From positions 71,189-135,188 of the forward strand of contig JAUYBE010000006.1 in the NCBI GenBank assembly GCA_030693235.1: 64,000 nucleotides of DNA, given 5' to 3'. The position numbers and the translations under genes were made by a program. Positions 54,852 through 55,346 of this stretch are shown in pieces. Each line of letters starts with the position of its first letter. The first letter of the stretch is position 1. The notes beneath the pieces were generated by a model. It made no database searches. It had not been told where the DNA came from and saw nothing but the letters and a program-made list of their open reading frames with translations. This DNA is from a bacterium. GTDB taxonomy: Bacteria > Patescibacteriota > Minisyncoccia > UBA6257 > UBA9933.

Positions 54852-55346
54852 ATGAATAAAGTTATTATTTATATTGATGGCGGTTCGCGGGGGAATCCCG
54901 GCCCGTCGGCAATCGGCGTTGTAATAGATTTGTCATTGCGAGCCGAAGGCGAAGCAATCCCAAAGAGATTGCCACGGGCTAAAGCCCTCGCAATGACAAA
55001 AATAGGGGAAAGAAAGGAGTATAGTAAGTTTCTCGGCGAAGCAACGAATAATGAAGCCGAATATCAAGCGGCGATTTTCGCTTTAAAAAAAATAAAACAT
55101 CTTATCGGCGGAGAAAAAAGCGAAAAAGTCGTAATTGAAATTCGTTCGGATAGCGAGCTTTTAGTCAAGCAAGTCAACGGACAATACAAAATCAAAGAAA
55201 AAAATTTAATACCTTTTTTTATTGAAATTTGGAATCTTAAGCAGGATTTCGCGGGGGTGAAATTCGTCCAGATTTCCAGAGAAGAAAACAAGCAAGCTGA
55301 TTTATTGGTGAACCGCGAGTTGAATTCTCAAACCGGTTTGTTTTAA
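54852..55346 (+). CDS. rnhA: Ribonuclease HI, with a 25-aa in-frame repeat-element insertion
   Basis: Sequence IYIDGGSRGNPGPSAIGVVI...TNNEAEYQAAIFAL...IRSDSELLVKQVNG...NKQADLL, matching the DEDD catalytic residue pattern of RNase H. Confidence 0.85.
   Translation: MNKVIIYIDGGSRGNPGPSAIGVVIDLSLRAEGEAIPKRLPRAKALAMTKIGERKEYSKFLGEATNNEAEYQAAIFALKKIKHLIGGEKSEKVVIEIRSDSELLVKQVNGQYKIKEKNLIPFFIEIWNLKQDFAGVKFVQISREENKQADLLVNRELNSQTGLF

Follow-up and report, generated by a model that had tools for sequence, protein, structure and literature searches.

Why does the same palindromic DNA lie in frame inside two unrelated housekeeping genes of one bacterium, and again in the spacers between other genes? 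The question is raised by a window of 64,000 nucleotides (the whole stretch of DNA that was analysed, positions 71,189 to 135,188 of contig JAUYBE010000006.1, assembly GCA_030693235.1) from a member of the candidate phyla radiation (CPR; Patescibacteriota). An initial annotation of this window had noticed a repeated element of roughly 70 nt in the RNase HI gene rnhA, in the phosphoglycerate kinase (PGK) gene pgk and in two non-coding blocks, and had taken it for a mobile element and not a protein motif. The results presented here agree with that view, and the element is probably a non-autonomous palindromic repeat, selfish in nature and with a CGTC-tagged layout, which would spread via a single-stranded intermediate and an Ssn-like nuclease and is tolerated in the form of additional protein loops.

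Repeat units in two genes and two spacers

The core sequence GTCATTGCGAG, allowing up to one mismatch, was found 10 times in the window compared to 0.76 expected occurrences, a number reached by none of 100 shuffled sequences. The matches fell at 24601-24843, 36561-36633, 52871-52955 and 54932-54997, the loci indicated by the initial annotation, and they represent a total of 10 hairpin units plus one fragment, spread over four loci. Four inverted pairs of units were recognized, of which rnhA and pgk hold one each and the other two are intergenic, together with two single units, a full pair being palindromic and 70-90 bases long. The features are the following, from left to right:

24586 to 24612, minus strand: single unit, TGTCATTGCGAACGAAGCGAAGCAATC
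24623 to 24694: intergenic inverted pair, flanked by a pilin-like gene and rpsB, with units 24623-24659 (plus) and 24666-24694 (minus), the second identical to the 29-mer found in rnhA and pgk
24792 to 24826, minus strand: single unit, TGTCATTGCGAGCGACCGAAGGGAGCGCGGCAATC
24830 to 24844, minus strand: 15-nt terminal fragment of a unit, reading CGGCTCGCAATGACA on the plus strand
36560 to 36634: inverted pair in the ftsI/murF spacer, with units 36560-36592 (plus) and 36608-36634 (minus)
52548 to 53927, plus strand: host gene pgk, 459 aa versus about 355-410 aa in relatives
52870 to 52956, plus strand: inverted pair in frame in pgk, 87 nt, residues 108-137
52870 to 52912, plus strand: left unit of the pgk pair, with inner hairpin GTCCCGC-AAA-GCGGGAC
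52928 to 52956, minus strand: right unit of the pgk pair, identical to the rnhA left unit
54852 to 55346, plus strand: host gene rnhA, RNase HI family, 164 aa versus 137-147 aa in relatives
54930 to 54998, plus strand: inverted pair in frame in rnhA, 69 nt, residues 27-49
54931 to 54959, plus strand: left unit of the rnhA pair, TGTCATTGCGAGCCGAAGGCGAAGCAATC
54967 to 54998, minus strand: right unit of the rnhA pair

The contents of the two non-coding blocks had been overcounted. Between ftsI and murF the element was indeed present, but the two copies reported there are the two arms of one inverted pair; likewise, the cluster in the block 24585-24848 was real, although it consists of one pair, two single units and the 15-nt fragment rather than four full copies. 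Moreover, the minus-strand open reading frames (ORFs) 24507-24689 and 52847-53044 do translate the element as RAEGEAI, as had been stated. The alignment of the four full pairs gave a mean column identity of 71%, just above the 70% set beforehand as the lower limit for copies of one repeat, and blocks without variation were seen at either end as well as at the inner GCAATC/GATTGC. In particular, the 29-mer of the rnhA left unit was identical in three units at three loci (rnhA, pgk and 24623-24694). Furthermore, each of the four pairs folded much better than its shuffled versions on either strand, with z-scores from -5 to -9, which bears out the hairpin that had been anticipated.

All units share the same order, composed of a 4-nt tag (C/T)GTC, ATTGC, an interior, GCAAT, an invariant C and a short tail, and in the pairs two such units are inverted with their tags facing outward. 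Folded one by one as single-stranded DNA, the units left the tag and the tail unpaired and formed a 5-bp ATTGC/GCAAT stem around an inner hairpin, a topology equal to that of a control unit of the Neisseria NTS repeat. The inner hairpins seen were GCC-GAA-GGC, GGGCT-TT-AGCCC, GTCCCGC-AAA-GCGGGAC and CCCCGC-TAA-GCGGGG. The tag was TGTC or CGTC in 9 of the 10 units of the window (the unit at 36560 has GGTC), and the tails were CCC, CTA, CTC and CTT, all of them starting with C. Among 233 units from other genomes, the first base of the tag was C in 170 (73%) and T in 52 (22%), C always appeared directly after the stem, and the tail was CCA in 138 (59%). The interior, considered in 231 units from other genomes, was mostly 6 nt (CGNAGC) or 12 nt (GAGCGAAGCGAC) long within a range of 1-31 nt, and the longer interiors were hairpins of unrelated sequence that kept their pairing. 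As the mean minimum free energy of the 34 distinct interiors of at least 13 nt was below that of shuffled sequences (-5.1 vs. -1.8 kcal/mol) despite their unrelated sequences, pairing is maintained at this position while the sequence is free to vary.

Regarding rnhA, the insert is a stop-free stretch whose 69 nt are a multiple of three, and it encodes LSLRAEGEAIPKRLPRAKALAMT within the ORF 54852-55346, in frame as had been claimed. When the product was aligned to the solved RNase H structure 3u3g, residues 1-25 and 55-158 matched and about 21 extra residues were left between them. Nearly all of the 120 RNase H homologues listed have a length of 137-147 aa. The closest relatives among those listed (84-88% alignment identity) are devoid of the insert, with GVVI running directly into G-KEYSK, and the DNA alignment with the rnhA loci of two relatives, taken as empty sites, delimited the element as a clean additional block. 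AlphaFold2 returned a confident RNase H fold, with a mean predicted local distance difference test score (pLDDT) of 85 and 112 of the 164 residues at 90 or higher; residues 30-51, located between the strands 17-30 and 54-64, had scores below 50. The insert is thus predicted by the model to be a disordered loop between strands 2 and 3.

The insert of pgk is likewise in frame, stop-free and a multiple of three (87 nt within the ORF 52548-53927), and it encodes LSLRGVPQSGTTKQSNNSTEIASPSARNDT. It is missing from the best PGK relative (394 aa, 68% identity) and from 47 out of 47 solved PGK structures, and its position corresponds to a variable loop of the PGK N-domain, a fold-compatible site like those occupied by Rickettsia palindromic elements (RPE). 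The right arm is read in different frames in the two genes, giving LAMT in rnhA and ARND in pgk, so that no peptide is common to both inserts. Since the nearest orthologues of both genes lack the insert, a conserved protein motif is excluded, and the comparison of these sequences supports the reading of both inserts as repeat insertions.

Beside the main element, pgk holds two further palindromic in-frame inserts. The first of them, at 53089-53138, has the structure ATCCCGTTAGAAAT-AGTCCCGCTCGGCGGGAC-GCG-ATTTCTAACGGGAT, encodes DIYPVRNSPARRDAISNG and is missing from every aligned PGK relative. The arms (CCCGTTAGAAAA...TTTTCTAACGGG) return in a shorter palindrome at 15209-15240, and its inner hairpin GTCCCGC...GCGGGAC recurs within the pgk copy of the main element. 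The other insert belongs to a third repeat family made of units of about 10 nt (ACGCGGAACT... / AGTCTGCGTMAGTC) in a palindromic array, with 7 matches in comparison to 0.17 expected, at 53755-53840 (pgk), 22275-22309, 37350-37384 (inside the murF ORF 36648-38015) and 39320-39333; its pgk copy (AEKHAELRGKSLRQSASSLRKSA) keeps the reading frame, as apparently does the one in murF. Several RNase H orthologues of CPR bacteria carry ADLRGLNADLRG-type inserts that resemble this third family in another frame, and because they occupy the same RNase H loop as the main element does here, that loop is a recurrent landing site.

Described repeats and flanking GIY-YIG genes

The distribution of the element was established by scanning genome DNA with a pattern of exact ends (GTCATTGCGAG/CTCGCAATGAC), which matched at least 120 stretches. 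The initial annotation had implied an element specific to CPR genomes, which turned out not to be the case, as identical ends occur in many phyla among the matches listed. These comprise Alpha-, Gamma- and Deltaproteobacteria, Bradyrhizobium, Sphingomonads, Micavibrio, Rickettsiales, the Bacteroidota Pedobacter, Mucilaginibacter and Flavobacterium, Chloroflexi, Planctomycetota, Microcoleus (Cyanobacteria), Zixibacteria, and Berkelbacteria and other Patescibacteria. In the 124 copies listed, position -1 was C in 88 and T in 28, position +1 was G in 94 and A in 26, and the second position outward leaned to pyrimidines on the left and to purines on the right; no conserved bases were found in the flanks beyond about 2 nt from each end, which places sharp boundaries at the tags. 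Most of these copies were intergenic, with 4 of 34 in low-G+C genomes lying inside long ORFs (one of them on a Patescibacteria contig), and at least three of the six frames were open in 87 of the 124. The target-site duplications that the initial annotation had proposed to look for were found in none of the 124 copies listed, direct repeats being even depleted in their flanks. Elements of the REP type (repetitive extragenic palindromes) and those transposing as single strands produce no target duplication, and therefore this absence is no argument against mobility.

The ORFs lying up to 1 kb from the element in 120 listed loci were also clustered. No shared family and no transposase-like family was found there, and the clusters obtained were driven by the translated repeat itself. 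GIY-YIG ORFs were likewise absent from these 120 loci, as expected if the copies far outnumber the gene. Furthermore, neither the window nor 18 loci matched any Rfam family at the gathering or at permissive thresholds, literature searches with the DNA core and the encoded peptides returned only primer matches and noise, and a literature search on in-frame palindromes in CPR bacteria found nothing relevant.

Among described repeats, the nearest are the CGTC-tagged REPs defined by Di Nocera, De Gregorio and Rocco in 2013, which present an unpaired CGTC/TGTC tag (CCTC being allowed), a stem of 8-9 bp opening with A-T pairs, a loop of 4-5 nt and a short unpaired tail with the consensus CCA (PMC3733652). 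They are mostly inverted dimers, often of unlike units, the intragenic dimers encode 20-30 aa, no transposase is known for them, and their hosts include Bradyrhizobium, Sphingomonads, Micavibrio, Neisseria (dRS3) and Rickettsia (RPE-4 and RPE-6) (PMC3733652). The closest of these families are CGTC-3 (VIAGLDPAIH type, stem ATTGCCGGG) and CGTC-1. The element shares with them the unpaired CGTC/TGTC tag, a stem starting with ATT, a C with a CCA tail, the inverted pairs of unlike units (four in the window, two of them in frame) and overlapping hosts. In contrast, its stem has only 5 bp (ATTGC/GCAAT) before an internal loop, instead of 8-9 bp, and its interior has 1-31 nt, often with a nested hairpin, instead of a loop of 4-5 nt; besides, it is found here in Patescibacteria, unlike the hosts listed for those families. 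Moreover, its typical peptides VIASEAKQS, LAMT and ARND had no match in five supplementary files of PMC3733652, including the intragenic list.

Hairpins of the CGTC-tagged repeats serve as single-stranded DNA recognition sites for Ssn-type GIY-YIG nucleases of about 90 aa. This second described system is represented by NTS, CGTCATTCCCGCGMAVGCGGGAATCYRG, the Neisseria form of these repeats, which is bound as single-stranded DNA by SsnA, a single-domain GIY-YIG nuclease of 94 aa that cuts a few bases upstream, and related motifs flank 71% of the ssnA homologues (Chenal et al. 2025, PMC11893778). The element has the same flanks CGTCATT...AATC(C/T)RG as NTS and the broader Ssn-related motifs (SRM), and it shares with them the C directly after the palindrome and the directional units. 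The stems differ, being ATTGC in the element and ATTCCCGC in NTS, and the published SRM pattern HGTCWYN(0-2)YYVSBRHN(0-5)WNVSBRGN(0-2)RNCYNB gave 0 matches in the window, none on any unit, while the NTS controls did match.

The third comparison is with the palindromic elements of Rickettsia, where RPE-4 corresponds to CGTC-4 and RPE-6 to CGTC-1 (reviewed in PMC10969869). Both are palindromic repeats that keep the frame of the unrelated housekeeping genes they occupy, here rnhA and pgk, and that sit where the protein fold can accept them, whereas the sequence family and the host phylum differ and the classic RPE-1 is longer (about 150 bp). By sequence the element is not one of the RPE families, as the peptides of RPE-6/CGTC-1 (VIPAKAGI, SFPRKRES) and RPE-4/CGTC-4 (VIPWLDHGI) are different from its own. 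Finally, REPINs and BIMEs share with it the inverted pairs of hairpin units, the lack of target duplication and a presumed single-strand intermediate, but REPINs have GTAG and not CGTC as tag, and their associated gene encodes a tyrosine HUH transposase (RAYT) and not a GIY-YIG nuclease. Overall, because the SRM pattern, the stem and the loop do not fit and the peptides are unmatched, the element was treated, on these sequence comparisons, as a previously undescribed variant of the CGTC-tag/SRM/RPE kind and not as a member of a described family.

The gene layout of the SRM systems was then considered in metagenome contigs, which were scanned for the right end of the element followed by a YVYI codon pattern within 3-33 nt. 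A total of 121 matches were obtained, 47 of which have a complete GIY-YIG ORF of about 90 aa situated 27-41 nt downstream. The 47 Ssn-like proteins correspond to 39 clusters at 90% identity, or at least 39 distinct genes, from hosts with G+C contents of 34-67%, and ends of the element also appear within 250 nt past the stop codon in 34 of the 44 loci with enough sequence. Elements of this type thus show the repeat-gene-repeat layout described for NTS and ssnA, as seen in the family and not in the window. The consensus of the flanked proteins was YVYILTNKRNTVLYTGVTNDLKRRV.EHK.KLVEGFTKRYNVTKLVYYE...REKQIKAGSRKKKI.LIN..NPEWKDLYEEL, and they match the Pfam GIY-YIG family. One of them is 59% identical to an Ssn-like protein (P0285) whose N-terminal extension SFPRKRES is a peptide listed for CGTC-1/NTS repeats. 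The Ssn-like set was gathered with a consensus query, and only the database proteins returned by it were used as evidence.

Spread of the element and competing explanations

Taken as selfish DNA, the element would pass through a hairpin of single-stranded DNA as it spreads within genomes. The gene of an Ssn-like nuclease would lie in another part of the genome, and its product may bind each unit and nick a few bases 5′ of the tag; in a pair, whose tags point outward, the nicks would fall on opposite strands, one immediately beyond each end, in agreement with the sharp boundaries of the element. Host replication or repair would then copy or move the hairpin, and only the copies landing in tolerant places would survive. 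In this genome, two copies seem to have ended up in loops on the surface of RNase HI and PGK and, as their lengths are multiples of three and stop-free, they would be translated as loops of 23 aa and 29 aa, leaving the enzyme folds intact.

Several points weigh against this interpretation. Firstly, the window contains no Ssn-like gene, and its single GIY-YIG gene is of another subfamily. Secondly, three of the four pairs carry one identical unit but differ in their partners and spacers, which is not what whole-pair copying predicts and suggests recombination or unit-wise assembly instead. Thirdly, the empty sites belong to other species (alignment identity up to 88%) and not to strains of the same one. 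The silence of the SRM pattern on every unit and the departure from the stem and loop lengths of the described CGTC families count on the same side. Finally, GIY-YIG nucleases hydrolyse DNA and none is known to join strands, so that they do not account for the insertion of a copy at a new site. In a bolder proposal, the element would transpose actively and would have a single dedicated enzyme, a GIY-YIG single-strand nuclease of 90 aa, which nicks each strand just beyond the tags and leaves the pasting to host replication or repair; this we hold to be doubtful, although still worth considering.

The nearest candidate for such an enzyme lies next to rnhA:

54534 to 54818: GIY-YIG ORF, 94 aa, single domain, 113 nt upstream of the rnhA copy

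Its size, its position and a detectable homology to Ssn-like proteins would make it the enzyme acting on the element. However, it scored 35 bits (E-value of 2e-10) on the Ssn-like profile compared to a median of 130 bits for the Ssn-like set, it is 34% identical to one Ssn-like protein, and the structures nearest to it are those of UPF0213. Moreover, no copies of the element were found in about 100 kb of flanks around its close relatives in seven other contexts, and the gene is part of a cassette of its own with different terminal repeats. Being of a different subfamily and having relatives with no element nearby, it was dropped as the partner of the element, a role we consider unlikely, and its closeness to the rnhA copy is probably a coincidence.

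The cassette that holds this ORF is an observation apart. It measures about 318 bp (54533-54854), is located between a DEDDh exonuclease gene and rnhA, and is bounded by terminal inverted repeats, each about 22 nt long (CCCAGTAATTCAACTTCAA / TTGAAGTTGAATTAACTGGG), with a duplication of TATG. On CPR contigs, almost identical cassettes were found in at least seven gene contexts, and between contexts the similarity begins at T-ATG-CCCAGTAATTCAACTTCAA and stops at TTGAAGTTGAATTAACTGGG-T-ATG, the second ATG of the duplicated TATG being in every case the start codon of the downstream host gene. Furthermore, the rnhA loci of two relatives have an empty site with a single TATG. From these alignments, the cassette looks like a tiny mobile element targeting start codons, and no description of such a start-codon-targeting GIY-YIG cassette was found.

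Two other explanations are as improbable as the local gene. According to one of them, the element is of the REPIN type and is moved by a RAYT or an IS200/IS605-type tyrosine (HUH) transposase acting on single-stranded hairpins, a view that is favoured by the inverted hairpin pairs, the sharp ends, the absence of target duplication and the analogy already drawn in the literature. Nevertheless, RAYT-associated REPs carry the tag GTAG whereas that of the element is CGTC/TGTC, no associated tyrosine transposase came up in the survey defining the CGTC families (PMC3733652), and the directly flanked genes found here encode GIY-YIG proteins, no search aimed at RAYT genes having been made. The other holds that the element is kept as structured RNA, with a role such as those proposed for REPs (a terminator or a hairpin that stabilises mRNA), and that the copies in genes are by-products. 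The strong folds on both strands, the intergenic copies between co-directional genes and the RNA-level action reported for REPs agree with it, but Rfam gave no match, no U-tract follows the hairpin, the copies appear in both orientations relative to the genes and inside ORFs, and the conserved parts are of sequence and not of pairing alone; selfish spread would in any case be compatible with an RNA role.

Even less probable is an ordinary MITE (miniature inverted-repeat transposable element), that is, an internally deleted insertion sequence (IS) moved by a DDE transposase which recognises terminal inverted repeats of 11-12 nt. The perfect terminal inverted repeats GTCATTGCGAG/CTCGCAATGAC, the small size and the dispersed copies are those of a MITE, while the target-site duplication was seen in 0 of 124 copies, no transposase-like ORF family was found within 1 kb of the element in 120 loci, and the frequent occurrence of single units and half-elements agrees with REP-like units rather than with a deleted IS. 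As for a peptide SLRAEGEAI/LAMT selected for its function in RNase H and PGK, its being in frame in both genes is outweighed by its absence from the closest orthologues, the different frames in the two genes, the same DNA in the spacers and the predicted disorder of the segment, which together refute it and leave it next to no probability. None of these explanations (MITE, REPIN, local GIY-YIG gene, RNA function or protein motif) fits as well as the selfish CGTC-type repeat.

Neighbouring sequences and significance

Other observations concern the surroundings of the repeats. Just upstream of the repeat cluster, and downstream of the pilin-like gene (22881-24137), the short ORF 24279-24380 repeats the C-terminal peptide of that gene (DDVRIYNRALSPAEISAIYNATK vs. 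DEVRIYNRALSAAEIMAIYNATK), as if the gene end had been duplicated or a second copy had left a remnant. The rpsB ORF (24929-25711) has about 38 extra N-terminal residues compared with the solved S2 proteins, and this stretch (24929-25050) holds the palindrome GATTGCCCTGAGCCTGCCGAAGGGCAAC with an ATTGC-type stem, perhaps a unit of some related repeat that has degenerated; translation of rpsB may really begin at the ATGATG at about 25050. Elsewhere in the window, an AT-rich inverted repeat at 32266-32395, with 59-nt arms that are 75% complementary and 12 nt between them, is built from AAAATG/TAAAAT-like motifs and lies about 430 nt upstream of a tRNA gene (32826-32897).

In-frame palindromic inserts were already known in Rickettsia and other bacteria. 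What is new is the CPR host, the reach of one sequence type across phyla, its invisibility to the published pattern and the direct flanking of Ssn-like genes. The invasion of housekeeping genes by in-frame palindromes, best known from Rickettsia, is thus extended to a bacterium of the candidate phyla radiation. One RNase HI loop and several PGK loops are shown to accept such inserts repeatedly. Moreover, a very widespread type of repeat, with ends GTCATTGCGAG/CTCGCAATGAC, has been missed by the published SRM patterns despite flanking Ssn-like genes, and surveys based on such patterns consequently undercount these systems. The element also accounts for many spurious short ORFs (VIASEAKQS, LLRFARND, SLAMT) and oversized enzymes in the annotation of metagenome-assembled genomes. 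Together with their repeats, the flanked genes offer naturally occurring candidate pairs of nuclease and target that would have a new specificity and could be of practical use in developing single-strand DNA tools. Finally, if the element proved to be an active transposon, it would provide a transposition route with neither a DDE nor an HUH enzyme, by which essential proteins of CPR bacteria, with their streamlined genomes, would regularly gain new loops.

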